DNA of 64,000 nt from Christensenellales bacterium (GTDB lineage: Bacteria; Bacillota; Clostridia; Christensenellales; UBA1242), in assembly GCA_051889995.1 (NCBI GenBank), contig JBJFDL010000002.1, forward strand, positions 239,927 to 303,926, given 5' to 3'. Below, piece by piece: positions 44,453 to 61,766 of this stretch. A model generated the notes under the pieces. The model worked only from the letters and a program-made list of their open reading frames with translations. It did not search any database and had not been told where the DNA came from. Every line of letters begins with the position of its first letter. The first letter of the stretch is position 1. Position numbers and translations under genes: made by a program.

Positions 44453-45011
44453 TTATAATTGTTTTATTTTTTCTACTATCTTTTCATAGAAGGGTATCAT
44501 GTAAGTTTCATCAGATTTGGCTATAAGTTCATCAAATATTAGCCAACCAATATTGCTATTTTCATCTTCTATAATATGTATAGCATTGTTTCATCGGCTT
44601 CAAGTAGATATGTAATATTAAGATGTTGATGTGCTGACACATATTTACCTTTTCTCACGTGGCTTTTAACAGGCAATATCTCAACAGATATTGGCATTTC
44701 ACTCACAACTTTAAATCTTTCTAGTGAAGTTCCTTCTTTCGTTTCTTTTTGTGGGACATAAAGCATATCGTCATCGCCATAAGCATGTCCGCCAACCAAA
44801 CTTCAAAATTTATAGATATTATGATAAATACAAAGAACTTTTGTGTGCTCTTTGTTTATTACAAATGCAGAAGATGTCAAGTGGCAAAATTGGTTTCCTT
44901 TTGTAAGAATATCTTCAAAAATTTCTTCTGCTTTTACAATCAAAGCAATATCTTCCTTTTCTTGTTCATTGTATGAAACATATTTTTTAACATTTCAATA
45001 GTTTTACTCAT
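44453..45011 (-). pseudogene. NUDIX hydrolase pseudogene
   Basis: HF.SSAFV, YHNIY, GGHAYGDDD, HVRKGKYVSAHQHLNITYLLEADE, with stops and frameshifts. Confidence 0.75.
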
Positions 45012-45292
45012 ATAAATTTCTCTCGCAAATATTATAACATAAATTTTCTATATTTGTTTATATATTTTAAAATATTTTGAAGTAATACAAATTTTACTAA
45101 ATAGACGATTAAAGTATTAAATTATTTAGATATTTTAAAACCAATCAAACTACTCAAAATACTACATTTGCTATCAAGTGCTGTCAAATTCAAAAGGCAA
45201 AAGACAGAAAATATTTTTTATCTCTTAAAATGCTTTTATTTATCTATGGCTTTAAAATTTAGAGCTCACACTCTTGATATCCAGGGCTCGTT

Positions 45293-45592
45293 CTTGGTAA
45301 GACAAGGAAAGCACTACTTTGACCACTTTTAAAACTTAATATTTCTCCATTTTTGGAGCTATGCTGATGTAGCTCAGCAGGTAGAGCACTGCCTTGGTAA
45401 GGCTTAGTTGGCACTCTCAAAAAGTCACAAAAACAACTAAAAATATAGCACATGCTGTTATGGCTCAGTAGGTAGAGCACCACCTTGGTAAGACAAGGAA
45501 ATAGCATTTTTGAACAATTTTACAACTTAATATTTACTCCATTTTGGAGCTATGCTGATGTAGCTCAGCAGGTAGAGCACTGCCTTGGTAAG
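45293..45592 (+). repeat. array of CTTGGTAAG core + spacer + tRNA-Thr 5'-half units
   Basis: Cores start at 45293, 45393, 45484, 45584. tRNA 5' halves start at 45363, 45454, 45554. Confidence 0.9.
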
Positions 45593-45629
45593 GCAGAGGT
45601 CACGGGTTCAAGTCCCGTCATCAGCTCCA
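45554..45629 (+). tRNA. tRNA-Thr(GGT), intact
   Basis: GCTGATG/CATCAGC acceptor stem, CTGCC-TTGGTAA-GGCAG anticodon arm, GGTTCAAGTCC T-arm, encoded CCA. Confidence 0.96.
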
Positions 45630-45719
45630 ATCATTAACCTTTGAAAAACCTTTATATTTAGGGCAATTCAAAGGTTTTTTATTTTTCAAAATTTTGAGTA
45701 AATTTTTGCTCAAAAAATA

Positions 45720-45854
45720 TTTGCTGTCAATTTTTGGAGCAATTGCTGTCAAAAAAGAGACAAAAAAATAGACCGATAGTCAGAATTTGAACTATCGGTC
45801 TAAATTGTTCTAATACTATACTAAACTGATATATTTGCTGTCAATTGCTGTCAA
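45720..45854 (+). repeat. arm-type repeats (TTGCTGTCAA x4) and hairpin at the element left end
   Basis: Copies near 45720, 45743, 45834, 45845. Hairpin TAGACCGATAGT...ACTATCGGTCTA. Confidence 0.75.
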
Positions 45855-46663
45855 ACTATAATTTTTGAATTTATATCAATTTCAATCACATCTTCAATTA
45901 AAACATTTTTCTCTTCGGTATAAAATTCGTATTCTACTTGTTCACTATTTTCAAAGTCTATCCTGTTAAATATATTGTCTATTAATATGCTTAATCCATA
46001 TTCTACAATTTGTGTCGGATATAGTTTTAAAACGATTAAATATGGTTTGCTTAAATTATTAAGTTTATCTCCTAATGGTGAGTTTTCAATACAAAAATAC
46101 TGTATTTCGCCACCATAGTTGTCATAAAAATTAAATAAACCACTATCAATACTATAAGAAATATTTACATTTCCTAGGGTTACCCATAATTGATTTTCTC
46201 GCATATTGTCTTGTTTTAATAGCAGGTGATGTTCTTTTAAGAATTCAGATTCCTTTTCATCAATATAACCATCGTTTAACAAATTTTGTATTCTATCAAG
46301 AAGATTATATTTCGAAGATGTTTTTAATCCGTATTTACAAATTCTATCCTTTTCTTTATCGGTATATCTTGATGCGTGAAAACAAATAAGTGGTTTGTTT
46401 TCTTTTAATAAAATATTATGAAATTTCTTTTTTAAATCACAGAAAGCATCATAATATTCATTTTTTAAATCAAAGATCTCATAAATTCTATTTTCTCGTT
46501 TATATTGCTCTTTTAATTCATAAATCTCTTTCTCTTTTTTTCTATATTCTTCAATAATCTCATAATTATCTTTTATCAGCTTTTTTAAAGAATTTGTCCA
46601 CGTATCAAAACAATTAATAATAATTTCATCTTTATTCTTGTATTTTCTTACTTCTAAATCCAT
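45851..46663 (-). CDS. hypothetical protein, possible ADP-ribosyltransferase-like fold
   Basis: CFHASR......ICKYGLK and YGGE motifs; probable leaderless start (TATAAT 6 nt upstream of ATG 46663). Confidence 0.6.
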   Translation of the reverse strand: MDLEVRKYKNKDEIIINCFDTWTNSLKKLIKDNYEIIEEYRKKEKEIYELKEQYKRENRIYEIFDLKNEYYDAFCDLKKKFHNILLKENKPLICFHASRYTDKEKDRICKYGLKTSSKYNLLDRIQNLLNDGYIDEKESEFLKEHHLLLKQDNMRENQLWVTLGNVNISYSIDSGLFNFYDNYGGEIQYFCIENSPLGDKLNNLSKPYLIVLKLYPTQIVEYGLSILIDNIFNRIDFENSEQVEYEFYTEEKNVLIEDVIEIDINSKIIV

Positions 46664-46701
46664 ATAAATATTATAACACAAAATATGTCAATAGTATATA
46701 T

Positions 46702-48057
46702 CTACATCTCAAAATCTTTTTCTTTTCTCTTTTTCTTTCGTTCAAGTTCTCTAATCATTCTGTCTATTTCTTCGTCAGTTAGTTCAGGTTCTTCTGGATT
46801 TTCAATTTCTTTCTCTTTTTGTTGTTCTTGAATTCTAGTGTTTAGTCGGTCGGTTGCTTCTCTTACATAATCATTATTAACAGAGTTGTAGACCGTGATT
46901 GTTGTTTTAACATCTCGGTGTCCCAATAATTGTTGAATAACCTTGGGATTTTCGTTTAATTCAAATAGCATATTTGAAAATGTATGTCGTAGTCCGTGAA
47001 AGTGAATATTGAATTTATTAAGATTATTTCTTCGTTTAAATCTATCAAAGATTTTACGAGTTCCTGAATAAGTCCTATAACTACCATCATCGTTGGCAAA
47101 TACAAAAGATGTTGGAGATGTTAATATAGCTGTTACATCGGCATTGGTTTGCTGTCTTTCATTTTGTTTGTCTTTCCATTGTTTTAGGGTTTCTATAACT
47201 ATATCCGTTACAGGTATCTCTCTAACACTACAAGTTGTTTTCGTGTCACCAATAACTGTTACTCGGTCTTTAATATTACCTTGTTCGTCAAACTTTGGAA
47301 CTTGGGTTATTGCTCGTTCAACCCTTATTGTTTTGTTGTTAAAATCTATGTTTTTCCACTTTAATGCAAGAGCTTCGCCAATGCGAAGTCCTGCAAACAT
47401 AAGAGTAATACAAAGTGGTTTTATAAAGTTGGCTTCATCTTTATTTAATGCTTCTAAAAACTTATCTCTAATCTCTGGTGGCAAAGCTTTGTATTTCTCA
47501 TCGTTATCTTCTTCGTATATATTTCTTTTGCCTTTAACTTTTACTTTAAGAGTTGGATTAACGACAATCCATTTATTGTCTATTGCATACTCAAAAAATT
47601 GATTTAATAGGTGTTTGCATTTCTTAATAGTATCTGTGCTATAGCCTTGGTCAAGTAAAGTATTAACTAATTTTTGTATAGCATAGTTATCTATCTCATA
47701 AACTTTCATTTTGCCGATTAGTGGGGCAATATGCAGTTTAAAGTTTCTAATATTACCTTCAAAAGTTCGTGGACTTACAGAACTCTTTTTAAAGGTCATA
47801 AGATATTCAAACATCAAAGTTTCCAAGTTATTATTTTCAACTAATTCATAAGAATTGCTTTTTAATCTGCCACTAATTTCAGATAACTTTTTAACAACTT
47901 CTGCTTGTGTTTTTCCATATATTGTTTTGCGAATTATCTTTCCATTTTCATCATAGCCAAGTGTTAAAGCTCCGCCCCAACGACCATCACTTCTTTGAAA
48001 AATACTGCCTTCATTATTTGCTCTGCGAGTTTTACTTACTGCTTTCTTTTTAGCCAT
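46702..48057 (-). CDS. int: tyrosine recombinase / integrase
   Basis: RRANNEGSIFQRSDGRW arm-binding N-terminus; GLRIGEALAL, HGLRHTF, LLGH, VYN. Confidence 0.96.
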   Translation of the reverse strand: MAKKKAVSKTRRANNEGSIFQRSDGRWGGALTLGYDENGKIIRKTIYGKTQAEVVKKLSEISGRLKSNSYELVENNNLETLMFEYLMTFKKSSVSPRTFEGNIRNFKLHIAPLIGKMKVYEIDNYAIQKLVNTLLDQGYSTDTIKKCKHLLNQFFEYAIDNKWIVVNPTLKVKVKGKRNIYEEDNDEKYKALPPEIRDKFLEALNKDEANFIKPLCITLMFAGLRIGEALALKWKNIDFNNKTIRVERAITQVPKFDEQGNIKDRVTVIGDTKTTCSVREIPVTDIVIETLKQWKDKQNERQQTNADVTAILTSPTSFVFANDDGSYRTYSGTRKIFDRFKRRNNLNKFNIHFHGLRHTFSNMLFELNENPKVIQQLLGHRDVKTTITVYNSVNNDYVREATDRLNTRIQEQQKEKEIENPEEPELTDEEIDRMIRELERKKKRKEKDFEM

Positions 48058-48316
48058 TTTGCACCTCGCTTGTATTGTTGTTTAGAGTGAGCCATGTAAC
48101 AAAATTTAGCACACTCACAACTTGTCTTTTGCCAACTTTCGTTGTAGGGAAATTTTTACTTCTCATCAAATTTCTAACGTTATCTCTTCCAAGACCTGTG
48201 ATTTTAATAAGGTCTTCACAATCAAGAAAATCTTTATTGTATTTAGTTGTTAAGCGGTCAACTTCCGACTGTATTAAGTTGTTAATATTTAGTTGTTGGT
48301 TGTTATTAAAATTCAT
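48050..48316 (-). CDS. excisionase-like HTH DNA-binding protein
   Basis: FLDCEDLIKITGLGRDNVRNLM...FPTTKVGKR; overlaps the int start. Confidence 0.75.
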   Translation of the reverse strand: MNFNNNQQLNINNLIQSEVDRLTTKYNKDFLDCEDLIKITGLGRDNVRNLMRSKNFPTTKVGKRQVVSVLNFVTWLTLNNNTSEVQNG

Positions 48317-48629
48317 TTAGTTCTCCTCGTAAAATTAAATATTTTTTGTTCAGTTCTATAAAGGTATTTTCTATATCTAAATTTTTGAGAAAGAACGACT
48401 AATAAGTCCTAACTTCTTTCTGCTTTTCAATAAATCTCTTTTGTAAATCTTCTTGCTTTTCGCAGAAATAATCGGTGTTCGGGTATCCCGACAGCCGAAA
48501 GAATGAGTAGAAATCACTAAAATTTAAGCGAGTCTCTAAAAAGTCCTATTTTATAGGGCTTTTACACACATAAATCTTTTATTGTTTCTACCTTATGCTC
48601 TATACTAAATATCTACCAAAAACACTATT

Positions 48630-49829
48630 CTACATCTCAAAATCACTAGATAAATAGCCTTCATCTATGAGTGTTTTAATTCGCATTTCTTCAAGTTTTC
48701 TCATATAGTCTTGAAAGCACTTAATTGCTTCGTATTCACACTTTGAATTTAGATACATACAATGTTCAAGTTCTTTCCAAAGTTTGTCTTTTTGCATTCG
48801 TTTTTGGACTACATATTTTGCGTTAAGTTTTAATCTTTCAATCTCTTGACCTTTCAAACTTTTTGCACTTTCAATCACCAAATTTCCAAGTCTGCGATAC
48901 AAATCTTTTGTATACTTTTCACTCAAATTTTGTTGTGGTTTTGGGGCACCATTTCGCTTGCAATAACTATCTACAAGTTTTTGTTTTTCACTAACAAGGT
49001 CATCAAAATCATTTTTGTAAATGCTAATATCAACATTGTGGGAGATGATATAGTTTGAAATGTTATCAATATTTGGTTTGAGTTTTTGCATATTATCGCA
49101 GTCGTAAAATGTGTGTCCTTGCTCTGGAAATTGGTTTGCTAGGTCTAGTAGCATTTGCTTTAATTTAAGCCCAGAAACATCGCTTAATCGCTCTTTAACA
49201 CTCTTTGTTAGTCTTAACCTTATTTCTTTCTCACGAGCCTTAAAACCGGTTGCAGAGAGTTCAATATTGGCTTTCAAAAAATCCATTGCATTATTTGAAA
49301 TATAACCACGAGAAAAATGTTTTTCTTTATTCTTCATTCTTTGTGGTTCTTTCTCAAAAAACAACAAATGAATATGCCTATTATCTGTGTTCTCGTGCAG
49401 TCCAGCAAACCATTCAATGTTGTCGGGGTTTAGTCCAGCTCGTTTAAAATATTTAGGTAGTTCGCTTTTTACAAGGGAATATGCCTGCTCATAACAGCCA
49501 CACCATTTTTTACCAAAGTTCTCTTCAAAGGAAATAATGCCAGACCAAATAACAGATTTGGTTTCTCTTAAATTCTTTCTAAAATCTGCAATTTGTTCTT
49601 TGTTCATAAGTCCATTTTGGTTAAAGATTCCACTAGATTTTGTGCTGTTATTTGAATACTCCACAAAGTCCAATTTTTCTAAATCTTTAATACCTGTGGC
49701 GACATATTTTAGATAATCGTCATACTTGTTAGATGAGTAGTAATTTCGCTTGTCTTGATTGGTTTTATCTTTGTAGTTCGGCAAAAAGAACTCTTGCTTA
49801 TAAACCACATTTGGAACTTTATCTGACAT
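48630..49829 (-). CDS. MobL-type (MOBP-like) relaxase
   Basis: YLKY, WSGIISFE, WFAGLHENTDNRHIHLLFFE (HUH). Confidence 0.85.
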   Translation of the reverse strand: MSDKVPNVVYKQEFFLPNYKDKTNQDKRNYYSSNKYDDYLKYVATGIKDLEKLDFVEYSNNSTKSSGIFNQNGLMNKEQIADFRKNLRETKSVIWSGIISFEENFGKKWCGCYEQAYSLVKSELPKYFKRAGLNPDNIEWFAGLHENTDNRHIHLLFFEKEPQRMKNKEKHFSRGYISNNAMDFLKANIELSATGFKAREKEIRLRLTKSVKERLSDVSGLKLKQMLLDLANQFPEQGHTFYDCDNMQKLKPNIDNISNYIISHNVDISIYKNDFDDLVSEKQKLVDSYCKRNGAPKPQQNLSEKYTKDLYRRLGNLVIESAKSLKGQEIERLKLNAKYVVQKRMQKDKLWKELEHCMYLNSKCEYEAIKCFQDYMRKLEEMRIKTLIDEGYLSSDFEM

Positions 49830-50280
49830 CTATGAGCTCCCTTAAAATTCTATCTCGTTCGCCTTCAATGCCATTTTCATCTAGTGGGTCATACTTCCAA
49901 CCTTGCGAGTAAACATTTAGGTTTATTGGGCTTTGTTTGTTAAGTAGTTTAGTGATTAGGTTTAGCAGTGCTTGATTTACTCTCACATTTGCATTAGTGT
50001 CCACAAAGTCCATTTTTTGATTTGCAGATATGGTTGTAAGTTTGTCGTTTATTTCTTGCAAACTTTTTCTAATCTCGCTGAAATTTATGCTTTGGTTTAG
50101 TGCGTTATCTCCAAGCATTTTATCTGCACCTAGCAAAGCAAAATATTTCATAGCATCGTTTAGGCTATCAAACTTGTCCTTAAACCTTTCAAGTGCTCGC
50201 TTAAAAATCTCATGCTCATCTTGATTGTAAACTCTTATCATATATTGAGTTTTCAAATCTTTTGTTTTAATTCTAGCCAT
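49819..50280 (-). CDS. putative relaxosome accessory (MobC-like) protein
   Basis: Overlaps the relaxase start; possible ribbon-helix-helix N-terminus; GGAGG RBS. Confidence 0.55.
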   Translation of the reverse strand: MARIKTKDLKTQYMIRVYNQDEHEIFKRALERFKDKFDSLNDAMKYFALLGADKMLGDNALNQSINFSEIRKSLQEINDKLTTISANQKMDFVDTNANVRVNQALLNLITKLLNKQSPINLNVYSQGWKYDPLDENGIEGERDRILRELIDVR

Positions 50281-50289
50281 TTTAGCCTC

Positions 50290-50900
50290 CTAATTATTTT
50301 CTAGTCTTTCTACATCTCTTTCTATATCTAATTAAAGGGGCAATGATTTTTTTGTTTGCTTTTACATTCTAAAAATCCTCCTTTTTGTTAAATTTGCTTG
50401 CACGAGAAGAACTACCTAACTAACAATAGGCGATATTTCGTTTTATCTCTTTCTACTAAAACTCTAACAAGAAAAAACCAAATCAAACTTGCGACTTCTC
50501 AATCGAATTTCTTTCTTTATCAAATTTTCTTTCTTTATCTAACAAAACAAGAAAAATATATATTTTTATATTATTATATATACAAGAGTGAGCATAGGTG
50601 AACTTGCTTATTTTTTCTTTGTTAGATATAAAATAGTGTTTTTCAAGTTTATTGGTTAGGAATGCAAGGTTGGTATCATTTTTCTTTGTTAGAAATTATT
50701 ATCTTTCTACAAAAACAAAAATACAATGCGAGAACAAAACATTGTATTTTCCCTACACTATATAGCGATTTATTGCACTTTTTGCACCAGATTTTTTGCA
50801 TTTTTGCTTGTTTTTGAGTAGTGTTAGCACAACAAAACAAAAAAATTTATCAAAAAATGCCCGTAAATACAGGCATTCGCAATTTTCGACAAAAAAAGTT
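50290..50900. other. repeat-rich intergenic region, candidate oriT/ori
   Basis: TCTAACAA.AAAA motifs in both orientations, TCTTTCTAC repeats, hairpin AAATACAATG...CATTGTATTT; lies upstream of the mob genes. Confidence 0.45.
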
Positions 50901-50941
50901 TTGTAAAAATGGTCAAAAAGTAGTTGTCTAGGTTGTAGTTT

Positions 50942-51847
50942 TCACCCCAAAATATTCTTTCTCACATGGTGCAAACCTTTATTTGTCTTAAAGTCCCTTA
51001 TTCGCTTTGGTGCAATGGATAGTTTAATCCATCTAAAACCCTTATTGCAAGGCAAACATTCATCTAATTTGTATAGCACAAAGTAGCACTTGATTTTTTT
51101 AAACTTTGGTTTTGTATGCAAGTAGTCATCAATTTTATAATATCTGTGTTTTGATGAGTGTTCAAAGATTATTCCTTGATATTTGTCTTGCAAGTTCTTT
51201 GAAAACACTTTTTCTGTTATCTCTATTGAAAACCCTTCAATGTTGTTTTTTGAATACACTTCTTTGTGTGGTAGGGTAAAAGTAAAATCTTTGATATTTC
51301 TAACTTTGTATTTCACTTTGCTTTCGTCATAGTCAGTTCTTGCAATAACATACCATTCATTATTCTTTTGTGCGAGATATATAACTTGCAAATATGAATT
51401 CTTTACAAGCACATTGCTTTCATATTGTTTGATTGTTATGTATGAATTTTTTGTTTGTTTTCCTTTTATTGTTTTGTTTGTCTGCCTTTCAACATATCCG
51501 CCATCAATCAAAAACTTAACATCATTTTGTATTGTTCGTTCTGTCACTCCAAACTTGATTGCAAGATTTTCTACTGCAATTTTTTTACCTTCCAAATACT
51601 TAAAGTAGTTCCACAATTTCTCTCGGCGAATTGATTTCCTGAAAACTTTTCTAACGTCATCTTTTTCATATCCACCATCATATTTACCATCAATTTCATA
51701 TTCGTCATAGTGAGTAGAGTCGTAATAAAGTTTAACACCACGCTTGCCTTTGATGTATGTTCTTTCAAGTTTTTTAATCTTTCTATCTTTACCTTTTGGA
51801 TTGATATATTCCAGTCCAGAGAAACATTTTGTTTTTAATATACTCAT
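50942..51847 (-). CDS. winged-HTH domain protein (possible replication/regulatory protein)
   Basis: ENLAIKFGVTERTIQNDVKFLIDGGYVER. Confidence 0.65.
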   Translation of the reverse strand: MSILKTKCFSGLEYINPKGKDRKIKKLERTYIKGKRGVKLYYDSTHYDEYEIDGKYDGGYEKDDVRKVFRKSIRREKLWNYFKYLEGKKIAVENLAIKFGVTERTIQNDVKFLIDGGYVERQTNKTIKGKQTKNSYITIKQYESNVLVKNSYLQVIYLAQKNNEWYVIARTDYDESKVKYKVRNIKDFTFTLPHKEVYSKNNIEGFSIEITEKVFSKNLQDKYQGIIFEHSSKHRYYKIDDYLHTKPKFKKIKCYFVLYKLDECLPCNKGFRWIKLSIAPKRIRDFKTNKGLHHVRKNILG

Positions 51848-51962
51848 AATTAAATTATATCATAAAACTGTTCGTTTTGCACTTGTAAATTAGAAAATTC
51901 GTTTTTGTAGCTAAATAAAAGTAGTGCTAGCGTTTAGCACTACTTTTAATAAAATATTGTGA

Positions 51963-54530
51963 TTATAACTCTACAATATTATTGCCGTCATAACAATATA
52001 ATTTTCCATTTCCTTTTGATTGGCTAGGATAATCATTTGTATATGAAATTGCTGTTTGAATAAAGTATATTTTATTATTCACTGCAATCAATCCATCTGC
52101 ACAGTTTTCACTTAACTTTGTTGAAGTGCCTGTTGATATGTTTAACTTATAAAAACCTTTTGTTGATGATTTTGTTGAAGAATAATATAAATAGCCATTA
52201 CAGTAAACCATATTGTTTATATCGACATTTTGAGCAAGCACTTGAGAATCGCTTGTTGATAAATTATAAGCATAAAGTTTGTTATCATCAATATTTCCAT
52301 AATACAAAATACTATTATTTTGTGTTATAACTTTTGCTCTCAAATTTAAGTTTTCAACTTGACTTGTTGATAAATCATATCTATAAGCATATTTGTTGCC
52401 CAATGAAGGATTTATAGTAAAGTATAGGAAATTATCAGCTTTTTCAAAGCTTGCTACCCATAGGTTTTTGTCATTGTAAATTGTTTCAACATTACTGCCA
52501 TCTAAATCCATTCTCACAATATCATTGTTATATGCTGAACCAACTTTAATGTAATATATTTTATCATTATCAAATATCAAATTATCACAACGAGATTTTG
52601 AAATCTTTGTTGTTTCATTTGTTTGTAAGTCCATTCTCCATAAAGCATAATTTACTGAAATATATGTGCTGTAATACATATAACCATTATAAAAATAAAC
52701 ATTTGATACACTATCAGCCAAAACTTTATATCTTGCTTTTGTTGTCAAATTATATTTATACAAACATCCATTATCAAGTGGATTTGTATAGTAAATTTCA
52801 CCATTATATTCAGCAAGTTTTGCATAACCTGTTGGAGTAATTGTTTCTTCTGGTAATTCAAAATTAGCCATAATATCAGTTTCAGTGTTGGTATTTAAGT
52901 TATAAGAATAAATGTGTTTATCATTTAACTTATAATAATATAAGTAGTTGCCACTTGATGCCAATGATGAGAAACCATTATCTTCTGCTGAAATAATTTT
53001 GTATCCCGGCAAACTGTTATCACTATCTCTTAATACACTAATTCTATATATTCCATCACCAAATAATTCACTTGTTATTTTGTCTTTGTTGATATAGTAA
53101 ATATAACTTCCAATTTTAGTTAAATATTTTCCATTATCAGTTGTAAGTTTTATGCAATCGCCACTCGAAATAACATATTTTCTAATTGCACTTGCAACAG
53201 GTAATCCCAATTCAGTTTTTGTTGAGTTAAAATAAATAATTCCGTTATCAATTAAAATATCACTTACTTTTTCATCATATAACAAAGTGCCTGTTTCTTG
53301 ATTGTTTGAGTTTACTGATATAGAGTAAAGTTTTCTGCCATCACTAACGTTTGAATAATAAATATTGTTATCGTAATATGTCAAATATTCAGCTTTATCT
53401 TGAACTAAACGAATTGCATCTTCACTGCCATCAAGTTTAATTTTATAAATACCATTTTGGTCTGTATTTAAAACTAAATTATTTATAGCATAGTAAAGAT
53501 ATGTTCCATCACAAGCCAAGTATTCACCATTAACATCTAACAATACACTTGCTGTAGTTCCATTAAAACTCTTGATAACTTTTGAGAATAAACTTGAACT
53601 ATAGTAATAAACTTGATTTCCATTTATAGTAAAATATTCAGCTTTATCGTTATTAACTTTTTTGACATTTGTTCCATCATAAACATAAAGTTTGTTATTG
53701 TCCAAATTGTTTTGGAAATATAGTTTGTTATTAAACACAACAGAATATAACAATTCTTCTGTAGAAGTTATTTTTAATGTGGCTGTATCTTCATAAGTGT
53801 TGTAATTTGCATTTGTAATAACTAACTTGACAGTATATGTTCCAACTTCTGATACTCCATCAACTTCAACATCATTGTATGTAACTTTAACAGTTGAATT
53901 TGCTGGTATATTTCCTACACATTCTAATGAATGTTTTTGAGTATCATATTCATAATTTCTACTTTCAAAAGTTATTCCAGCCATATCTGCTTTGTTAATT
54001 GTCCAATTAAGATTTGCAAGAGTTGGCTCGTTGTGATTTATCGTATCATAATTAAACTTAACACTGGCAGTATAATTTCCTGCATTTGTCTTTGCATTAT
54101 TTTGATATTGTTTTACTGTTACACCTTGTGGAAGTCCTAAAACTTCAACAGATTGTTCACTTCCATTATAAACGAACTCACTTTCGTAATTCCAATGAAC
54201 AGTTGACATATCATAGTTTAACTTATTGATAGTTAGTTTTGCAGTTAATTCAAGTGTTTTATATCCTTCAAGTGTTAAAGTTGCTTTTGCATTATAAACT
54301 CCAGCATTTGTTCCTTTATTGTTTTCATAAACAACATTTACACCTTGTGGCAATTCGCCATCCAAAACAATTTCGTGTTCCTGTCCATCATAATCAATTG
54401 TTTGATTTGCAAAAGTTATGTTCTCAAATGTTTTTAGGTTATCATTGTCACCACAGGCCGATAATATAAAAGCAAATGGCAAAACAAATACAATCAATGC
54501 TAAAACTTTTAATATTTTCATTCTTTTCAT
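51963..54530 (-). CDS. DUF5050 beta-propeller lipoprotein with MBG-like repeats
   Basis: Lipobox LSAC; YDGQEH...TNAGVY..LTINK repeats; many IYYxN...LY..L.DG blades. Confidence 0.85.
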   Translation of the reverse strand: MKRMKILKVLALIVFVLPFAFILSACGDNDNLKTFENITFANQTIDYDGQEHEIVLDGELPQGVNVVYENNKGTNAGVYNAKATLTLEGYKTLELTAKLTINKLNYDMSTVHWNYESEFVYNGSEQSVEVLGLPQGVTVKQYQNNAKTNAGNYTASVKFNYDTINHNEPTLANLNWTINKADMAGITFESRNYEYDTQKHSLECVGNIPANSTVKVTYNDVEVDGVSEVGTYTVKLVITNANYNTYEDTATLKITSTEELLYSVVFNNKLYFQNNLDNNKLYVYDGTNVKKVNNDKAEYFTINGNQVYYYSSSLFSKVIKSFNGTTASVLLDVNGEYLACDGTYLYYAINNLVLNTDQNGIYKIKLDGSEDAIRLVQDKAEYLTYYDNNIYYSNVSDGRKLYSISVNSNNQETGTLLYDEKVSDILIDNGIIYFNSTKTELGLPVASAIRKYVISSGDCIKLTTDNGKYLTKIGSYIYYINKDKITSELFGDGIYRISVLRDSDNSLPGYKIISAEDNGFSSLASSGNYLYYYKLNDKHIYSYNLNTNTETDIMANFELPEETITPTGYAKLAEYNGEIYYTNPLDNGCLYKYNLTTKARYKVLADSVSNVYFYNGYMYYSTYISVNYALWRMDLQTNETTKISKSRCDNLIFDNDKIYYIKVGSAYNNDIVRMDLDGSNVETIYNDKNLWVASFEKADNFLYFTINPSLGNKYAYRYDLSTSQVENLNLRAKVITQNNSILYYGNIDDNKLYAYNLSTSDSQVLAQNVDINNMVYCNGYLYYSSTKSSTKGFYKLNISTGTSTKLSENCADGLIAVNNKIYFIQTAISYTNDYPSQSKGNGKLYCYDGNNIVEL

Positions 54531-54546
54531 ATAAATCTCCTAATTA

Positions 54547-55398
54547 TTAAATATCTTCTGTTAGTTCTGGATTGCTATAACTTTTCATTAAAGCAAAAGG
54601 ATATGCAATTGCACTTAATGGCATACAAATCACTAATGCAAGCAAGACAGCTGCAAGTCCTAATGCGAAACCAAGAATCCAAAACAAGATTTTCATTCCA
54701 ATAAGCCAAGCAAAACCACCTAAGTCAAATGAGAATATAAGTCCCGGAAATTTTACAAATCCCCACGAAGCTATTGATATAAATGTATCTCCGATAAAGT
54801 TATTCTTTAAGAACATACAAGAAGCAAATGTATATGTAAGTATTGGCAAAATTATAACAAGTGCTATCATTCCGCCATCAACTTTTTGTGTGGCTGCATA
54901 TATTATGCCGGATATCAAAATAATAGCCGCAATAATTGAAGAGTATATGTAAGATTTCTTTCTTTGAGATATACCATAATCAATCGCATCTTTCTTTTGC
55001 TTTGCTTTAATCTTTTTGTCACAATCAGTGCAAATATAATGCGTTGTTGACGGACTTCTTCCATGATGTCGTGTTTGTGTGACAATTTCTTCACTTTCGT
55101 AAATTGGTCGTTTACAATTTTCACAAATAGTTAAAACAGGTTTGCCTTGTTCAACAACAATTTTTTCTTGCACTTCAGTTATAACTTCTGGCTTTGGTTT
55201 TTTATCTGGTCCACAAATTATTTCATCGGTTGTCACTTCAAATATACTTGCCATTTCACTTATTGTATCAATTGACGGTTCAACATCACCTTTTTCCCAT
55301 CTTGATACTGCTTGAGATGTTACGTGCAACAAATCAGCAAGTTCTTTTTGTGTTAGCCCTTTTTGCATTCTTAATGCTTTTATGTTTTTAGATATCAT
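54547..55398 (-). CDS. XRE-family HTH protein with a zinc-finger-like segment and C-terminal TMs
   Basis: LTQKELADLLHVTSQAVSRWEKG; CENC...CTDC; hydrophobic C-terminus. Confidence 0.85.
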   Translation of the reverse strand: MISKNIKALRMQKGLTQKELADLLHVTSQAVSRWEKGDVEPSIDTISEMASIFEVTTDEIICGPDKKPKPEVITEVQEKIVVEQGKPVLTICENCKRPIYESEEIVTQTRHHGRSPSTTHYICTDCDKKIKAKQKKDAIDYGISQRKKSYIYSSIIAAIILISGIIYAATQKVDGGMIALVIILPILTYTFASCMFLKNNFIGDTFISIASWGFVKFPGLIFSFDLGGFAWLIGMKILFWILGFALGLAAVLLALVICMPLSAIAYPFALMKSYSNPELTEDI

Positions 55399-55541
55399 TT
55401 TACCCCTCCTTTCAACAATTCAATTCTATCACAAAATCAACAGTTTGTTTCAAAAATCGGCTCAACAGTTTGTTGTATTCTTATAAATTTTGTTTCATTT
55501 TACTATATATATTTCTTAGTATAGCATAAATATCAAATATC

Positions 55542-56011
55542 TCATACTGTTTGTAAAACATTTATTATTTCTTTCTTTTTCCTTTTTGCATATTCAAGTG
55601 CTTTTTTTGCACCGGAATATTCGACAGTTTCGTCAACACAAAAAACACAATAATCACTATGGTCAATAATTTCACAATTTCGGTAATAAATTCTTGAATA
55701 CCAATAGTCAAAATTTAAGTCTAAATATGTAATTTCTTCATAATCTTCATCTTTTAACCATTTTGGTCTTTTAGATAATCTTTGATGTCGTGGGTCTGAC
55801 AAACAAAATATCCTATAAATTTCAAGGTGTTTGGTTTTTAACTCAGTTATTATTGAGTGGCATAAATCATCAAATTCGCCAAATCCACCAAAATAAAAAT
55901 ACTTAACATTTTCTTGTGTTATAAGCATTTCAAAAGTAGATTTTAAATAGTTTTCAAGTTCTTTTGTAATTTTAATTTTGCTATGTCCAAAAACAGAACA
56001 TGATTTTTCAT
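55542..56011 (-). CDS. DUF1273/SLOG-like protein (start ambiguous; ATG 56011 is out of frame in an A5 run)
   Basis: CSVFGH, FYFGGFGEFD, IYYRNCEIIDHSD, SGAKKALEYA. Confidence 0.65.
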
Positions 56012-56025
56012 AAATTGACGATGTA

Positions 56026-56134
56026 TTCACAACTCTAATTATAGATAGAATTTTAATAATTGTCAACACATTCACAACTTGTGTATACATTCACAACATT
56101 ATTTTTGACTAATTGCTAAAATTATCGTGAATAC
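56026..56134. promoter_or_regulatory. consensus promoter with repeated TTCACAAC operators
   Basis: Minus strand TTGACA-17-TATAAT (56066-56038); three ATTCACAAC copies and an inverted TCGTGAAT. Confidence 0.65.
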
Positions 56135-56163
56135 ATTAACAAGATTTAGGAGAAAATTAAGTT

Positions 56164-56397
56164 ATGAAATTACACGAAGCAGTTGGTAAAAGAATTTTAG
56201 AATATTGCAATGAAAGAGATATAACACCAAACAAACTTTGCACAATGTCAGGCATTATTCAATCGACAGTAAATAGTATATTTTCTGGAAGAAGTCAAAA
56301 TCCAAAACTCGCAACAATCCAATATTTATGTGATGGGTTAGGCATAACTTTAAAAGACTTCTTTGATAGTCCATTATTTGAAAATTTAGATGATTAA
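56164..56397 (+). CDS. XRE/Cro-like repressor
   Basis: ITPNKLCTMSGIIQSTVNSI...NPKLATIQYLCDGLGITLKDFF. Confidence 0.88.
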   Translation: MKLHEAVGKRILEYCNERDITPNKLCTMSGIIQSTVNSIFSGRSQNPKLATIQYLCDGLGITLKDFFDSPLFENLDD

Positions 56398-56450
56398 CCA
56401 CAAAAAAATAGCATTAGACTTAGTTCCTAGTGCTATTTTTGTTTTATTCT

Positions 56451-57071
56451 TTAATTTTCCAGCAAATCTTCGATATTACAACCCAAAACTCTTGCTAGTT
56501 TGTAAAGGGTTTCAACTTGTGCTTTGTTTATATCGTTTCTTCGTTGTTCATACATTTGAATAGAGCGAAGTTCAACTTCTGCAAGGCTTGCAAGTTTGCT
56601 TTGAGATAAGCCTCGTGCTTGTCTTATTTTTTTTAGGTTGGTGATTTCAGACTTTTTGAAATATGTGTTTGCCACATCAAAAAACTTTGTTACATCTGCT
56701 TCGTGCAAGGTTGGATATAGTCTTAAAACTTCTTCAATAGGCAATGAATTATTTATCTTATAGAAAGAATATCCTTTTTTATGTTGAAATTGAGCCAAAA
56801 CCCAGCCAGCCCAATAGTATTTATCTTTGTTTATATCTTCTTTGTTTGGAATGGATTTTTTGCCATTATAAATCTCATTCAAATAATCTAATGCAGAGCA
56901 GGTCAGATATTTTGGATTTCCTTTTTCAATTTGTTTTGCAACATTGGAATTGACAAATGTATTCCAAAAAATTGTAGGATTTATTCCAATATCTACAGCA
57001 TGCTCAAACATTACACCCAAATTTTCGGATAAATTTGGTAAATATAAATTGTTATATGATTGAATCGCCAT
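56451..57071 (-). CDS. DUF3791-like + XRE HTH protein, putative antitoxin/regulator
   Basis: YWAGW, LYPTLHEAD, LSQSKLA...IQMYEQRRNDINKA. Confidence 0.8.
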   Translation of the reverse strand: MAIQSYNNLYLPNLSENLGVMFEHAVDIGINPTIFWNTFVNSNVAKQIEKGNPKYLTCSALDYLNEIYNGKKSIPNKEDINKDKYYWAGWVLAQFQHKKGYSFYKINNSLPIEEVLRLYPTLHEADVTKFFDVANTYFKKSEITNLKKIRQARGLSQSKLASLAEVELRSIQMYEQRRNDINKAQVETLYKLARVLGCNIEDLLEN

Positions 57072-57735
57072 CTTTTAACCCCTTTCTCATAATATCCACT
57101 ACAAATATATCATTGGTTAGTGTCGCAGATTTTCTAGTGCCTTTCAAATAATCTTCTCGTGCCTTTTCATCTCTCGCTTTTCTTTTTGTAAAGTATTCCA
57201 ATCTGTCTGCAGTTTCAAAACCTTCAAAATGAAGTTTACTAAATGCAAGTTCGCTAACTATTACAACTTGCTTTCCAAGTTGACCTAATTCCATAGCTTG
57301 ACTTAATTTTCTAACTGGAATTGTGTTGTTTACAAAATCTCTTGCAAAACTAAAATATGAGTCGTCTGCTCTATAACCTATAACTATATCGTAATTATTT
57401 ACATCAATGTAAAAGTTTTTGAGCAAATACTCTTTCGCTTGAATAGATATATCATTACTCAAATCAAAAGTTCTAAATTTTAAAAGTATTGCAATCCAGT
57501 TCAGTATTGAATATCTTTTATCTGTTAAATCTAGAATTTTAAGCCCAGACAAATCAATAGAATACTTATTTGCAAATCCATTATTTTCGTTATTACTGCA
57601 AGACCACTCTTTTGCCAGTTCCAAACTTTCTGTGCAATAAAATCCAAAACCATAATCGTTTTCAGCCTTTCCACCGTGGTAATATGGCTTTTCAATAATA
57701 TCTTTTGAACCATGATAAATAACTAACTTTGACAT
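57052..57735 (-). CDS. DUF3990 family protein (ART-like, putative toxin)
   Basis: IYHGS, NDYGFGFYCT, AKEW, YDIVIGYRADD. Confidence 0.88.
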   Translation of the reverse strand: MSKLVIYHGSKDIIEKPYYHGGKAENDYGFGFYCTESLELAKEWSCSNNENNGFANKYSIDLSGLKILDLTDKRYSILNWIAILLKFRTFDLSNDISIQAKEYLLKNFYIDVNNYDIVIGYRADDSYFSFARDFVNNTIPVRKLSQAMELGQLGKQVVIVSELAFSKLHFEGFETADRLEYFTKRKARDEKAREDYLKGTRKSATLTNDIFVVDIMRKGLKDGDSII

Positions 57736-57759
57736 ACACTTCTCCTTTTAATCTATGCT

Positions 57760-57874
57760 ATTATATCATTATAATGATACATTGTCAACCAATTATGACA
57801 TTTTTATATCATTACAATGATATATCTATATTTCAACTAATTACGATTATTAAATTTATATCATTACAATGATA
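57760..57874 (-). promoter_or_regulatory. promoter with three TATCATTAYAATGATA palindromic operators
   Basis: Copies at 57764, 57807, 57859. The first sits in the spacer of the minus-strand TTGACA-17-TATAAT promoter, overlapping the -10. Confidence 0.75.
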
Positions 57875-57976
57875 CATTATGAATTATTGTCTTTAATAAT
57901 CATATTAAAACCACTTTATCAAACTTACAAAGTTTTAGGCAGTTCAAGAGCAACCAGGTCTAGTAAAAACATCACA

Positions 57977-58112
57977 TTTGCTGTCAATTGCTGTCATTTT
58001 TATCAATCAAAAGACAGCAAATATTTTTTTATATCGCTAAAAGCCTTTATTTACCTAATGTTTTTACTCATAGAGCACACACTCTATTTTACTAGAACCC
58101 GACCTTGGTAAG
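57977..58112 (+). repeat. element right end (attR) with arm-like repeats
   Basis: TTTGCTGTCAATTGCTGTCA...AAAAGACAGCAAATATTTTTTTAT...TAGAGC.CACACTCT...CTTGGTAAG; homologous to 45167-45301. Confidence 0.8.
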
Positions 58113-58153
58113 ATAAAACCAACACTAAAATTTATCAATAAAAAACTTAATAT

Positions 58154-58228
58154 GCTACTGTGGCTCAGCGGTAGAGCACTGCCTTGGTAAGGCAGGGGTC
58201 ACGGGTCCGATTCCCGTCACCAGCTCCA
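58154..58228 (+). tRNA. hybrid / likely defective tRNA-Thr(GGT)
   Basis: Acceptor stem GCTACTG/CACCAGC has two mismatches; T-loop reads TCCGATT; anticodon arm is intact. Confidence 0.7.
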
Positions 58229-58458
58229 TTCAAGAAATCCTTGAAAACCCTAGTAAATTGGGCACTTTCAAGGATTTTTCTTTTGCAAAAAATTTTGCTT
58301 AATTTTAGACTAAAAATACAATAGGTGTAGTAAAATGCTCCAAAAAGTGTAGTAAATTTGCATAAAAAAAGACCAAGAGTTCAATTTTTAAACTCTCGGT
58401 CTAATTCGCTCTAAATCTCCCTAAAACTAGTGTAATAGGTGTAAACTAGTGTAGTAAA

Positions 58459-58944
58459 TTATTTAATAACTTTCAAATCATCAATTTTAACAGAAATGCA
58501 ATCTCCATAAAACTCGCCATTTTTATCTATACCAGAAAAATCCACTTCAATATAATTTTGGACTGCATTATTATCCATGACACATCCTCTGTCACCTTTG
58601 TGAATGCCAAATTTAGTATATCTTTCTTCTTCAACCAACAATTCAACCATATCGTATTCGTTTATTGCTATTGGCTCTATGACATTTTTTGCCTTTAATT
58701 TTAAGGTCTCTAATTTAGACAACAATTCTTTTTCAAACTCTGTTGGAACTTTTTCTTTGTCCAAATCTAAATCAATAGTTTTTATATTAACAATTGCATA
58801 ATCTCCGACATTGTGTGGATTAAAAAATAGGACATCTGCATTATCGAAATTTACATCAACTACAATCCCATGCATATCTTTATTTAAATTGTGCGATTTA
58901 TATGGCCTATCGTTTTTAAGTCTTACTAAATCTAATTTTTTCAT
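58459..58944 (-). CDS. tandem DUF4926-like protein, putative immunity
   Basis: MKKLDLVRL...G.VVD and INEYDMVELL...GIHKGDRGCVMD...EVDFS; GGAGG RBS. Confidence 0.7.
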   Translation of the reverse strand: MKKLDLVRLKNDRPYKSHNLNKDMHGIVVDVNFDNADVLFFNPHNVGDYAIVNIKTIDLDLDKEKVPTEFEKELLSKLETLKLKAKNVIEPIAINEYDMVELLVEEERYTKFGIHKGDRGCVMDNNAVQNYIEVDFSGIDKNGEFYGDCISVKIDDLKVIK

Positions 58945-59525
58945 TTTATCCACCCTCCAAATGGTGTAGTATTTTTTATTTTTCCTTCGGGATATAGCAT
59001 CCAACCGCTATAAAAGGTTATTCCGCTTAAAGTGGTTGGAATTGCCAACCTTAAGCCTCTTCTATCCAAATTTTTACGGATATAATTTCCTAAAAGATAT
59101 TGTTTTAATGCTTGTTTACAATATTCATTTTGTAGATACTCAGAATCGTTGATATCAAAACCCAAATCATAAAATATTTTATTTTTGCCTTTAGAATCTT
59201 TTACATTTTTAAAAACATACTCCGTAAATTTCTTTATATCACATTCGGCTATTGCACTATATATAACATTTGAATATGTAATATCTTTTTTGCGACAATC
59301 ACAGTTATCATGCAATGGCTGCTCTGGCATATTTCTTGTAACAAGATAGCAACCATCTAATGAAGTGCAATTCATACAATGTCCAAATAGTGCCATTATA
59401 TTTCTTAATAATTCTCTAAACCATTCTGGTTTATTTGGAATTAGGAAATGGTCCCATTCAATCCACTGGTTAAAAAGAAATTCTCCATTTTCTCCTATGT
59501 GAATTAAATCATCAAAAACACCCAT
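58941..59525 (-). CDS. MuF-motif + DUF6883-like putative toxin
   Basis: HCMNCTSLDG...PEQPLHDNCDC (Phage_Mu_F-like); KFTEYVF...KGKNKIF.DLGF...SGW...TTPF. Confidence 0.65.
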   Translation of the reverse strand: MGVFDDLIHIGENGEFLFNQWIEWDHFLIPNKPEWFRELLRNIMALFGHCMNCTSLDGCYLVTRNMPEQPLHDNCDCRKKDITYSNVIYSAIAECDIKKFTEYVFKNVKDSKGKNKIFYDLGFDINDSEYLQNEYCKQALKQYLLGNYIRKNLDRRGLRLAIPTTLSGITFYSGWMLYPEGKIKNTTPFGGWIK

Positions 59526-59643
59526 ATTATATCATACCTCCTTATAGAATGCAAAAGGTTGAAGAACATTTGCATTCCTTCAACCTTCTACTTGAATTAT
59601 ATCATACGCTTTTCATCAAATTCAACATTCACTGCCATTTTTA
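59526..59643 (-). promoter_or_regulatory. conserved leader (two promoters, hairpin, RBS), copy 2
   Basis: TTGAAT-18-TATAAT, hairpin AAGGTTGAAG...CTTCAACCTTTT, TTGCAT-17-TATAAT spanning AAGGAGGT. Confidence 0.75.
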
Positions 59644-59885
59644 TTACATCTCAAAATCTCTTTCTCTTCGTCTCCTTTTTCGTTCTTCTTGTTCTCGGAG
59701 CATTTCAGCAACTTTTCGGTCAAATTCTTCATCAGAAAGTTGTTTTTGTTCTTCTTGCTCTTCTTTTTTCTCTTTTTCTTCTATTTCTCGCTTCATCTCA
59801 TCTTCAACAATCTTTTCGTTAAGTTTATCTGTTGCTTGTTGAACATAATCACTATTAACACTATTGTAAATACCTATTGTAGTAA
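59644..59885 (-). pseudogene. 3' remnant of a tyrosine integrase
   Basis: IYNSVNSDYVQQATDKLN...LSDEEFDR...RDFEM* aligns with the int C-terminus VYNSVNNDYVREATDRLN...LTDEEIDR...KDFEM*. Confidence 0.85.
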
Positions 59886-60208
59886 ATACGAATTATAGAC
59901 AGTCTTGCTTTTGGCAATATTTTTTAAAATCTATTCCTTTCACATCATCTATGAGCTTTCCAAAAGAATATATAAAAAAAATTAATACAACTTGACAATG
60001 AAAAAAGTATTTGTGAAAAATAATCTTTAATTACTATAAAAGACTATTTTTTATTACTAGTTCCATATTTAAAATTTATCAAATATTTTGCATTGCTCTT
60101 CTTTAGTATAAGATAACTTCGTGTTTATGATTTCAGTTTTTTCATTAGTAGGATTATCAATTTTACAAAAACATATTTAAGTTTTATCTTCTGTTTTAAG
60201 TTTAAAAA

Positions 60209-60281: not shown

Positions 60282-61766
60282 TTATATAAATACACTTATT
60301 TCTCTAGAAATTGTTTCTGTTTTACACTTGCTTTTATAGACTTTTGTGTACTCTAATGTTTTTATTAAATCAAAGCTTTTGTATTCAGAGTTATAAGGAC
60401 ACTCTAAATATATTTCTACACTTTGATTATCAATTAAGATTTTCTTAACCAAATAATAAACAAAATTAATTCCATCAAGAGTTAATGCTTTTTGAAAAAA
60501 CTTTTTCATATATGCTTTTGTTCGCCTTGTATTCTCTTTATTGCTTTCTAAATAAATTATTGCTTTTAGTTCGCTTATTCTGTTTTCAAGTAGTCTTATT
60601 CTTTCATTTGTTGTTTCATTATATACCCCATCTTCAACAGCTGTTAATAAATTTTTCAAAGACATTTCGCATCTTCGTTTTTCATCTTCACTAGATTTTA
60701 ATAAATAGATATTCTTTTTTTGTTTGTTTTTATTTAATATTACATTTGAAATGTTTTCAATATTGTCATCATTTGAAATAAAATCTTTTATAAAAGAAGT
60801 TAAATAATCCTCTATTATTTCCTTTCTATATGCTGTGGATTTACAAGTATGATATCTTCTTCTTTGAGAACATTTGTAATATCTATGAATTTTACCGTAC
60901 CTCGATGTCCCACTATCTGCAAAGTAAACACTTCCACAATTTTTACAATATATTCTTGCCTTATAATGATATGGTTCTAAAACACTTTTGCCATATCTAT
61001 TCAAATGCAAAATTGTTTTTACTTTTTCGTAAATACTTTTATCAATAATTGGAGGATAAATATCACAATAATACTCATTATTGCAAAAATACATTCCTGT
61101 ATAATATTCTTGCCTTAAAATATGATAAACATGTTTTTCATTAAACTTTTGATTGTTTTTGTAACAAACTTTTTTCTTGTTTAATTTTTTTGATATATCT
61201 TTGCCAATAGTTCCTAACGAATATTCCTTAAAGATAAATTTAACAATTCTGGCTTCATCTTCATTTATTTCAAGCTTATGATTGATGTTATTATAACCAT
61301 AAGGACGAATTCCACCTTGATAATTACCTTTTAATCTAGTTTCCCTCATTCCTCGTTTAACTTTTTGAGATAATTCAGCAGAATAATATTGGTTCAATCC
61401 TTCTAGTAAACTTTCTAGTATTATCCCCTCGGGTGTATCTGGAATATTTTCCATAGCAGAAATTACACTTATTCCTTTGTCTTTTAAACTTTTCTTATGG
61501 ATTACAGACTCGTACTTATTCCTTGAAAATCTATCAAACTTATAAACTAGAATATAATCCCATTCCTTATTGTTGCTATCCTTTAACATTCTTTTAAACT
61601 CAGGGCGATTATCAGTAGTTCCAGAAATTGCTCTATCTATGTAGTTGTCAATGATTTTTATATCATGCTTTTCTGCATATTCGTTACATACACGAAGTTG
61701 CCCTTCAATACTTTGCTCTGTTTGATTGTCGCAAGAATACCTTGCATAAATTACTGCTTTTTTCAT
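60282..61766 (-). CDS. large serine recombinase
   Basis: VIYARYS, DRFSR, PYGY, zinc ribbon CKNCG...YYKC...C, coiled coil. Confidence 0.95.
   Translation of the reverse strand: MKKAVIYARYSCDNQTEQSIEGQLRVCNEYAEKHDIKIIDNYIDRAISGTTDNRPEFKRMLKDSNNKEWDYILVYKFDRFSRNKYESVIHKKSLKDKGISVISAMENIPDTPEGIILESLLEGLNQYYSAELSQKVKRGMRETRLKGNYQGGIRPYGYNNINHKLEINEDEARIVKFIFKEYSLGTIGKDISKKLNKKKVCYKNNQKFNEKHVYHILRQEYYTGMYFCNNEYYCDIYPPIIDKSIYEKVKTILHLNRYGKSVLEPYHYKARIYCKNCGSVYFADSGTSRYGKIHRYYKCSQRRRYHTCKSTAYRKEIIEDYLTSFIKDFISNDDNIENISNVILNKNKQKKNIYLLKSSEDEKRRCEMSLKNLLTAVEDGVYNETTNERIRLLENRISELKAIIYLESNKENTRRTKAYMKKFFQKALTLDGINFVYYLVKKILIDNQSVEIYLECPYNSEYKSFDLIKTLEYTKVYKSKCKTETISREISVFI

Follow-up and report, generated by a model that had tools for sequence, protein, structure and literature searches.

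Islands that integrate into tRNA genes carry, in the canonical case, a tRNA fragment that restores the gene, and one displaced fragment is left behind. In the account given of the Islander survey, islands with a displaced 3′ fragment number 3760 and those with a 5′ fragment 159, and tandems of at least three come to only 4 (Hudson et al., NAR 2015, PMC4383910). In the tRNA-dependent lysogeny of actinobacteriophages, a tyrosine integrase uses a common core of ~10 bp, the tRNA is not reconstructed and the phage brings a tRNA of matching isotype; the authors further speculate that a tRNA on a plasmid could act as the bacterial attachment site (attB) for a second, tandem integration (Guerrero-Bustamante & Hatfull, mBio 2024, PMC10865867). 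Here we describe an array of tRNA-Thr(GGT) 5′ halves at positions 45293–45629 of a 64-kb stretch of DNA (the window; 64,000 nucleotides) from a Christensenellales bacterium with a genome of 1.06 Mb and 28% G+C. The array adjoins a candidate integrative mobilizable element, E_B, whose tyrosine integrase we call IntB. We read it as left-junction (attL-side) scars stacked up at an integration hotspot in tRNA-Thr(GGT) and put the probability of this reading at about 0.78. The standard view has a tRNA-targeting element restore the gene and leave a single 3′ fragment; here the gene would be replaced, and the tRNA carried as cargo would become the next target.

Judging by the published account of it, actinophage tRNA-dependent lysogeny is the closest known system. 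As there, the core is short and lies in a tRNA, the target is rebuilt at neither junction (this is seen in the related genome G195, and the window junctions are non-tRNA on one side), and a complete tRNA-Thr(GGT), at 45554–45629, is found inside the conserved element block. Unlike the actinophages, the carriers here are mobilizable elements with a MobL relaxase and, in E_B, no phage structural family recognized by Pfam, and their hosts are Clostridia. The replacement tRNA lies 41–75 nt from the core of the element's own attachment site (attP), so that an orphan 5′ half and a new gene make up a compact unit. Moreover, orphan 5′ halves have built up into arrays in a third of the family's sampled genomes, and the family has chimeric genes as well.

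The locus shares with the Islander islands a tyrosine integrase, a crossover of the anticodon-loop class, an integrase gene (int) beside the tRNA, displaced fragments at the ends and occasional tandems; it differs in that the element carries a whole gene and displaces the 5′ half by ~100 bp upstream and the 3′ half to the far end. By our reasoning, the 2 kb length filter described for Islander (PMC4383910) would exclude units of 80–113 bp. Our literature search, with supplements outside its scope, returned no description of tRNA 5′ half arrays made by integrative elements.

Site-specific accretion is familiar from streptococcal integrative and conjugative or mobilizable elements, where a new element enters a resident att junction and tandem arrays share their cores. 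The repeated sites in that case are plain att cores or 3′ gene ends, and we know of no regenerated complete tRNA or 5′ half array described among them. The likeness to integron cassette arrays is one of form only: the units here measure 79–113 bp, contain no open reading frame (ORF) and go with an integrase that has lambda-like arm repeats.

Cores, tRNA halves and spacers

The core CTTGGTAAG occurs six times in the window, where 0.41 matches are expected, and 0 of 100 shuffles reached six. All matches (45293, 45393, 45484, 45584, 58104 and 58183) lie on the + strand. The core corresponds to tRNA nucleotides 31–39, that is, to the final anticodon-stem pair and the seven-base loop, and its composition, C+TTGGTAA(+G), is that of the anticodon loop with its closing pair. 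The spacings, 100, 91 and 100 bp in the array (45293–45584) and 79 bp at a second locus (58104–58183), are those reported in the original prediction, which was made from the letters alone.

The same prediction held that each interval contains a spacer and a tRNA-Thr 5′ half, of which only the last is completed. ARAGORN and a search for 3′ halves agree with it. Complete tRNA-Thr(GGT) genes were found only at 45554–45629 and 58154–58228, and the only two 3′ halves of the window lie inside them; the tally is four 5′ halves against two 3′ halves. In the array, the 5′ halves (nucleotides 1–30) belong to allele a in unit 1 (Table 1) and at 45554–45583, and to allele b in unit 2. The first orphan matches the complete gene's 5′ half at every base, and allele b differs from allele a in the acceptor and anticodon stems. 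Downstream of each orphan come the core and, after it, AT-rich sequence without tRNA character. In Rfam, the complete gene scores 76.1 bits and the orphan at 45363 scores 20.8 bits, under the 29-bit threshold. The complete gene is cognate, with 7/7 pairs in the acceptor stem and 5/5 in the anticodon stem.

Over 114 bp, unit 1 agrees with unit 3 at 91% of positions, and their spacers both finish in a CTCCA/TGGAG hairpin; spacer 2 is unrelated to them, again as predicted. Identical stretches of 40–50 bp (5′ half and core) are repeated within the window. The ~48 identical bases common to units 1 and 3, together with the frequent position of arrays at contig ends in relatives, are what an assembly artefact or a tandem duplication by slippage might produce. 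We find such an origin hardly credible: the units are heterogeneous (three spacer types and three alleles, with the related units differing at 10/114 positions), the same junction types appear in independent assemblies, and units of this kind are present in 136/401 genomes. Because of this heterogeneity, and because the a-to-b junction recurs in G097 and the b-to-a junction in L067 and G350, all assembled independently, we accept the three-unit array as assembled.

The wider count comes from an exact-match search for a core, 62–92 nt, a 5′-half end and a core. Such units were present in 136 of the 401 family genomes, a lower bound, as the pattern misses longer units and variant cores. They were found in 112 of 291 good-quality genomes and in 32 of 58 genera. 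The reversed pattern, used as a control, gave 0 among the matches listed. The most units matched in one genome was 4; G025 has six, split over two contigs. Number and order of the units vary, and both orders (c then d, d then c) occur in relatives.

Spacer type and tRNA allele go together. The c-type spacer precedes GCTACTG (allele c) in 8/8 units, the d-type GCTGGTG (allele d) in 9/9 and the a-type GCTGATG (allele a) in 6/6. Among 80 units, pairs with similar spacers have the downstream half in common in 265/348 cases and the upstream half in 61/235, the background of half-sharing for dissimilar spacers being 17–18%. Of 41 arrays, 36 end in a fully cognate tRNA and the other 5 in a chimeric one, and an orphan half would fit the terminal 3′ half of its own array in 12 of 49 cases. 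These linkage and cognate counts are descriptions rather than tests, as the genomes are related and the counts not independent.

The units also match the ends of larger elements. The spacer subtype of unit 1 stands before the complete tRNA of an IntB-type element (Int 93%) in L084, and a complete b-type module (spacer b with a cognate tRNA, GCTGTTA/TAACAGC) is present in G097. These matches bear on a second suggestion of the original prediction, that the units are non-autonomous mini-elements of ~100 bp (core, spacer, half, core) moved by integrases in trans. Two cores do bound each unit, and the same unit types appear in varied orders and contexts across genomes. Each unit type, however, has its counterpart at the left end of some full element type with a cognate complete tRNA, the spacer tracks the half downstream of it, and no unit was seen apart from a tRNA-Thr array. 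An arm-dependent tyrosine integrase, moreover, needs an attP of several hundred bp, and circles of 80–113 bp would be sterically unfavourable. We regard mini-elements as very improbable.

No family other than tRNA reached the gathering score when the spacers were searched against Rfam, and the folding energies of whole units are ordinary (z = −0.4 to −0.6). A TAATAT-like motif abuts the tRNA in the spacer classes that have no hairpin; we claim no promoter from this motif. In 23 of the 75 different spacers, a hairpin of 5–7 bp stops 3–4 nt short of the 5′ end of the tRNA. It is seen in the window at 45343–45356 and 45535–45547 and at many other loci, among them L042, L045, L058, L059 and L084. 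The stems vary by spacer class (CTCCA/TGGAG, GCCCA/TGGGC, GTCCA/TGGAC, CGGCA/TGCCG and GGAGAGA/TCTCTCC). These hairpins suggest a conserved leader structure.

Element boundaries and the probable replacement of the target gene

To the left, we compared the window with seven loci in metagenome-assembled genomes whose integrases are 91–96% identical to IntB. The eight elements align from the arm sites by way of the terminator, all of tRNA(a) and the spacer of type a, and they diverge exactly at the core upstream of that spacer, with different 5′ halves to its left. To the right, a search of 400 other family genomes for the arm that precedes the far core (the X arm) matched 27 loci, 18 of them with a readable junction. 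In 18/18 readable junctions the arm ends at CTTGGTAA. What follows is a tRNA-Thr 3′ half of varying allele in 13/18 and a spacer or other non-tRNA sequence in 5/18, the window included. Because homology in the relatives stops there on the left as well as on the right, we place the crossover at the core upstream of the spacer. The identity common to the junctions is only 9–10 bp, and the attP core leads into a spacer and not into a 3′ half.

The clearest single case is G195. Its layout runs 5′ half(d), core, spacer(c), tRNA(c), integrase (88%), Xis-like protein (92%), MobL (97%), an X_B-type arm, core and 3′ half(d), the core-to-core distance being 11,432 bp. Joined in silico, the outer halves are identical at 75/75 positions to the intact tRNA(d) of G021. 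From such junctions we reconstruct attP as P arm, core, spacer, complete tRNA and P′ arm. By the same comparison, integration appears to split the target tRNA without rebuilding it, and the tRNA of the element replaces it. The expectation that the 3′ part of the gene is duplicated, as is usual for tyrosine integrases at tRNA genes, did not hold here.

E_B itself spans 45493–58103, ~12.6 kb between the cores at 45484 and 58104, with 11 ORFs between the two tRNA-Thr genes (45851–57735). Besides the integrase, the HTH_17-like protein and the MobL relaxase (Table 1), these encode regulators and a DUF5050 surface-type protein. Relatives of IntB at 82–96% identity adjoin tRNA-Thr arrays, and the HTH_17-like gene is kept beside int in G003, G029, G195 and G368. 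No type IV secretion system, coupling-protein or phage structural family (capsid, terminase, tail) was found by Pfam among the 11 ORFs, some of which have no match at all. With a tyrosine recombinase, a relaxase, direct repeats of the att core and arm sites at both ends, E_B has the make-up of an integrative mobilizable element; we place it in this class because a MobL relaxase is present without conjugation families. An ORF of 276 aa without a Pfam match (45851–46681, − strand) sits between the left arm and int and is absent from the relatives in G003 and G195.

The decamer TTGCTGTCAA is present in four copies downstream of the first tRNA (45721–45854) and in two copies ~110–125 bp upstream of the core at 58104, with near-copies at the matching distance upstream of the core at 45293. 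We expect these repeats to be arm-type integrase sites of one P′ arm and two P arms. The sequence left of the core at 45293 is homologous to that left of the core at 58104 (68% over ~250 bp, including the following unit), and its arm type (…CAGGGCTCGTT and then CTTGGTAA) stops at the core in 9 other genomes. It appears to be the right arm, and all that is left, of an older element, E_A. The 10 ORFs at 21.8–41.7 kb and the 5 ORFs at 41.8–44.8 kb include no integrase or relaxase that could mark an E_A body, no further core or 5′ half marks its left end in the window, and five same-genus genomes show no synteny with the flanks.

Table 1. Features of the tRNA-Thr array, E_B and the adjoining locus (positions in the window).
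Feature	Position	Strand	Description
X_A, right (P) arm of putative remnant E_A	45150..45292	+	Arm-type repeats 45168–45187; ends exactly at core
Core 1	45293..45301	+	C+TTGGTAA+G; P-O-P′-type junction, X_A to a-type spacer
Unit 1	45302..45392	+	a-type spacer 45302–45362 (leader hairpin), orphan 5′ half allele a 45363–45392
Core 2	45393..45401	+	CTTGGTAAG match
Unit 2	45402..45483	+	b-type spacer 45402–45453, orphan 5′ half allele b 45454–45483
Core 3	45484..45492	+	Putative attL of E_B; homology of 8 aligned IntB-clade elements stops exactly here
E_B-borne module	45493..45629	+	a-type spacer 45493–45553, complete cognate tRNA-Thr(GGT) 45554–45629 with core 4 at 45584–45592
P′ arm of E_B	45630..45860	+	Hairpins and four TTGCTGTCAA arm-type repeats at 45721, 45743, 45835, 45845
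Tyrosine integrase IntB	46702..48057	−	Pfam Phage_integrase 5.5e-25, SAM-like and central domains
HTH_17-like small protein, candidate excisionase	48050..48316	−	Weak Pfam match (0.0089); overlaps int start
MobL-family relaxase	48630..49829	−	Pfam MobL 1.8e-24; ~97% identical in G003 and G195
X_B, right (P) arm of E_B	57960..58103	+	Arm repeats 57978–57997; 88–93% homologs stop exactly at core elsewhere
Core 5	58104..58112	+	Putative attR, right crossover site of E_B
c-type unit and putative chimeric tRNA-Thr	58113..58228	+	Short c-type spacer 58113–58153; c-allele 5′ half joined at core 6 (58183) to apparently foreign 3′ half
Left arm of further, apparently decayed element	58229..59889	+	Terminator, GTGTAGTAAA-type arm repeats, two unknown ORFs
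Integrase C-terminal remnant	59701..59889	−	Inside decayed element right of second tRNA

The boundaries could also be drawn differently, with X, core, spacer and 5′ half all belonging to the right (P) arm, the crossover always in the loop of the tRNA itself (45584, 58183), the unit deposited by attR and hybrid tRNAs at both ends. The layout at 58104–58228 (X_B, core, spacer, 5′ half, core, 3′ half) has this form, as does L036/G076; L071 joins a 5′ half(d) to a 3′ half(c) beside int, and in L068 a lone tRNA with its own promoter stands by an IntB homolog. Against this, the X homology stops at the core and is followed by 3′ halves in 13/18 junctions, with no conserved spacer, and it is the left-end homology that takes in the spacer and the 5′ half. 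An E_B circle would then unite 5′ half(c) and 3′ half(a) in a tRNA with two mismatches in its acceptor stem. In addition, 36/41 terminal tRNAs are cognate, which hybrids of unrelated halves rarely would be (12/49). We consider this geometry improbable and keep to left-junction scars.

While module boundaries and the logic of replacement come from sequence comparison, the following steps would complete the picture. The attP of the element family would consist of a P arm X with arm repeats, a core of 8–10 bp, a spacer of 41–75 nt, a complete tRNA-Thr(GGT), a terminator, four arm repeats and int, and its carriers would be integrative mobilizable elements of uncultured, gut-type Clostridia with small genomes. 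With Int presumably catalysing each step, the attP core would recombine with the anticodon loop of the resident tRNA-Thr(GGT). The resident 5′ half would stay upstream as an orphan, and the 3′ half would move to the far end, behind X. The tRNA of the element, its expression possibly driven from the spacer, would take over from the split resident gene. Because it has the same core in its loop, the new tRNA would be the next attB, and every later integration would orphan one more unit of spacer and 5′ half.

In the window, E_B would have entered at the core at 45484, at a junction in front of an older c-type unit, and the older E_A at the core at 45293, where the a-type spacer resembles the left end of the L084 element. 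Both would have entered junctions before older units, and neither a working gene. On this basis, several ideas of the original prediction can be sorted. The units are best understood, as it proposed, as products of site-specific recombination at the anticodon-loop core, and tandem accretion is borne out by the two X arms of the window, each of which runs into a spacer and not into a 3′ half. A fresh tRNA-like attB would indeed arise with each integration; its placement beside attR has to be corrected, the unit being the front of the element's left (P′) arm rather than an appendage of attR. The proposed record in strict chronological order is not supported, as new elements enter internal or first cores (E_B, E_A) and both orders of c and d occur.

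If this reading is true, it accounts for compact 5′ half arrays, which annotation pipelines or island finders may overlook or label wrongly, and tRNA-dependent integration, known from actinophages, would include conjugatively mobilized elements as well. The arrays would then be a natural system for the study of integrase choice among identical cores and of att-module exchange between elements. They could mark past element traffic in metagenome-assembled genomes, if not as a strictly ordered record.

Several observations weigh against the reading, beside the descriptive nature of the linkage and cognate counts. Exact-pattern scans of metagenome and viral contigs gave no excised circle or isolated attP. 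A strict sigma-70 scan of 44900–45900 found no + strand promoter in the spacers, and we treat spacer-driven tRNA expression as a conjecture. The target of E_B was a junction of 5′ half, core and spacer, not a tRNA, and the window is no simple case. The anticodon stem of G003 shows a mismatch between the orphan 5′ half (CCACC) and the 3′ half at attR (GGCAG); therefore, histories must be multi-step. Among the 18 IntB-clade loci with a nearby tRNA, 2 (L068 and L077) have no orphan unit; the lone tRNA of L068 lies directly behind a TTGACA-17-TATAAT promoter. Because of these two loci, we allow that the tRNA's own loop may sometimes be a crossover site too. Finally, an IntB-like gene was found within ~1.5 kb behind only a minority of the arrays examined; the remaining arrays may carry different or decayed integrases.

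L077 shows a further peculiarity. Here (reverse complement, ~2500–2730) CTTAGTAAG precedes the spacer and tRNA of an IntB-type element (86%), directly after an apparent complete long-arm tRNA. This element may use a different, related core.

Chimeric tRNAs and the probable loss of element bodies

The tRNA at 58154–58228 scores 58.1 bits in Rfam and has 5/7 acceptor pairs and two non-standard pairs, the acceptor strand of its 3′ half being CACCAGC. An identical 3′ half lies behind the attR core of the same-genus genome G003, which still holds a c-type module there with its integrase (84%) and MobL (97.5%). In L062, the short c-type spacer and a cognate tRNA(c) stand beside a 91% IntB homolog. 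We interpret the tRNA at 58154–58228, by this comparison of its halves, as a chimera. Other chimeric terminal tRNAs were found at L019, L035, L036 and L071, and all are joined within the loop. The origin of the stems differs: in the window and in L036 the acceptor pairs at 5/7 and the anticodon stem is intact, and in L071 and L019 the anticodon stems are mismatched.

The chimera at 58154–58228, the four 5′ against two 3′ halves and the 5 chimeric arrays of 41 suggest that element bodies were lost between alternative cores, which fits the loss put forward in the original prediction. Units 1, 2 and 58113–58183 would have lost their bodies through recombination by Int between the core in the element's tRNA and the attR core; this route of loss we infer. 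The product would be a spacer and 5′ half fused to a foreign 3′ half, as in the tRNA at 58154–58228. Starting from a state like that of G003, the window would be reached most simply by the loss of an element between the core of its own tRNA and the attR core.

Bodies might also have been lost by ordinary deletion or by homologous recombination between tRNA repeats, without the integrase. Decayed elements are common (the integrase remnant at 59701–59889 is one, and G021 has a decayed mixed arm with two repeat types and no int), and the identical stretches of 40–50 bp could support RecA-dependent loss. Yet the chimeric tRNAs are all joined in the loop, with flanking stems of different origin, and none of the 57 units listed is truncated except at the core. 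We hold a loss of this kind to be rather unlikely. Because all joins lie at the core, loss mediated by the integrase is the likely alternative.

A more far-reaching idea can be offered only tentatively, and we would not expect it to hold in full. Integrase recombination between any two cores might shuttle cassettes of 80–113 bp (spacer and 5′ half) from element to chromosome or back and so swap tRNA modules among near-identical elements. The arrays would then be self-renewing, multi-core landing pads that favour tandem accretion while a working tRNA is kept, integron-like for attachment sites. An IntB of at least 91% identity is found with a-type or with c-type modules.

Outside the window, the genome has a third tRNA-Thr(GGT), without the core, at G000:C2:94032–94107 (− strand), with the loop ATTGGTAAT, a different loop-closing pair and an unusual D stem. 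Such a copy could relieve dependence on element-borne genes. The idea of a conserved core-less 'native' tRNA-Thr(GGT) in the family was dropped, since of 60 relatives only 2 (G016 97%, G008 89%) had a match to this allele at 89% identity or above.

Neighbouring mobile DNA and a tRNA-Arg site

To the right of the decayed element lies a large serine recombinase with Resolvase, Recombinase and zinc-ribbon domains (60282–61766, − strand), followed by an ORF of 700 aa without a Pfam match (61900–63999, + strand). A site 16 kb past the array of G003 shares 79% identity with the serine recombinase region. The neighbourhood looks like a stack of mobile DNA.

The element types share a left-arm layout of terminator, two repeats, a GACCG…CGGTC hairpin and two further repeats. 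It is seen in the window at 45721–45854 and 58330–58460, in L026 at ~18050–18400 and in L031 at ~13900–14300. The arm repeats themselves differ among elements, being of the types TTGCTGTCAA, GTGTAGTAAA, AGGTACA and AGGTGTCAA.

Outside the window, the genome carries two identical-looking tRNA-Arg(TCG) genes 9 kb apart, at G000:C4:10332–10406 and C4:19365–19439. In front of each stand a loop-like core (TTCGAA), a foreign tRNA 3′ half (GCAGATTT.GTGGGTTCGATTATCCCAC) and a short spacer, and the upstream copy resembles a whole pseudo-tRNA. This site may be a second integration hotspot, with a complete downstream tRNA inside the repeated block.

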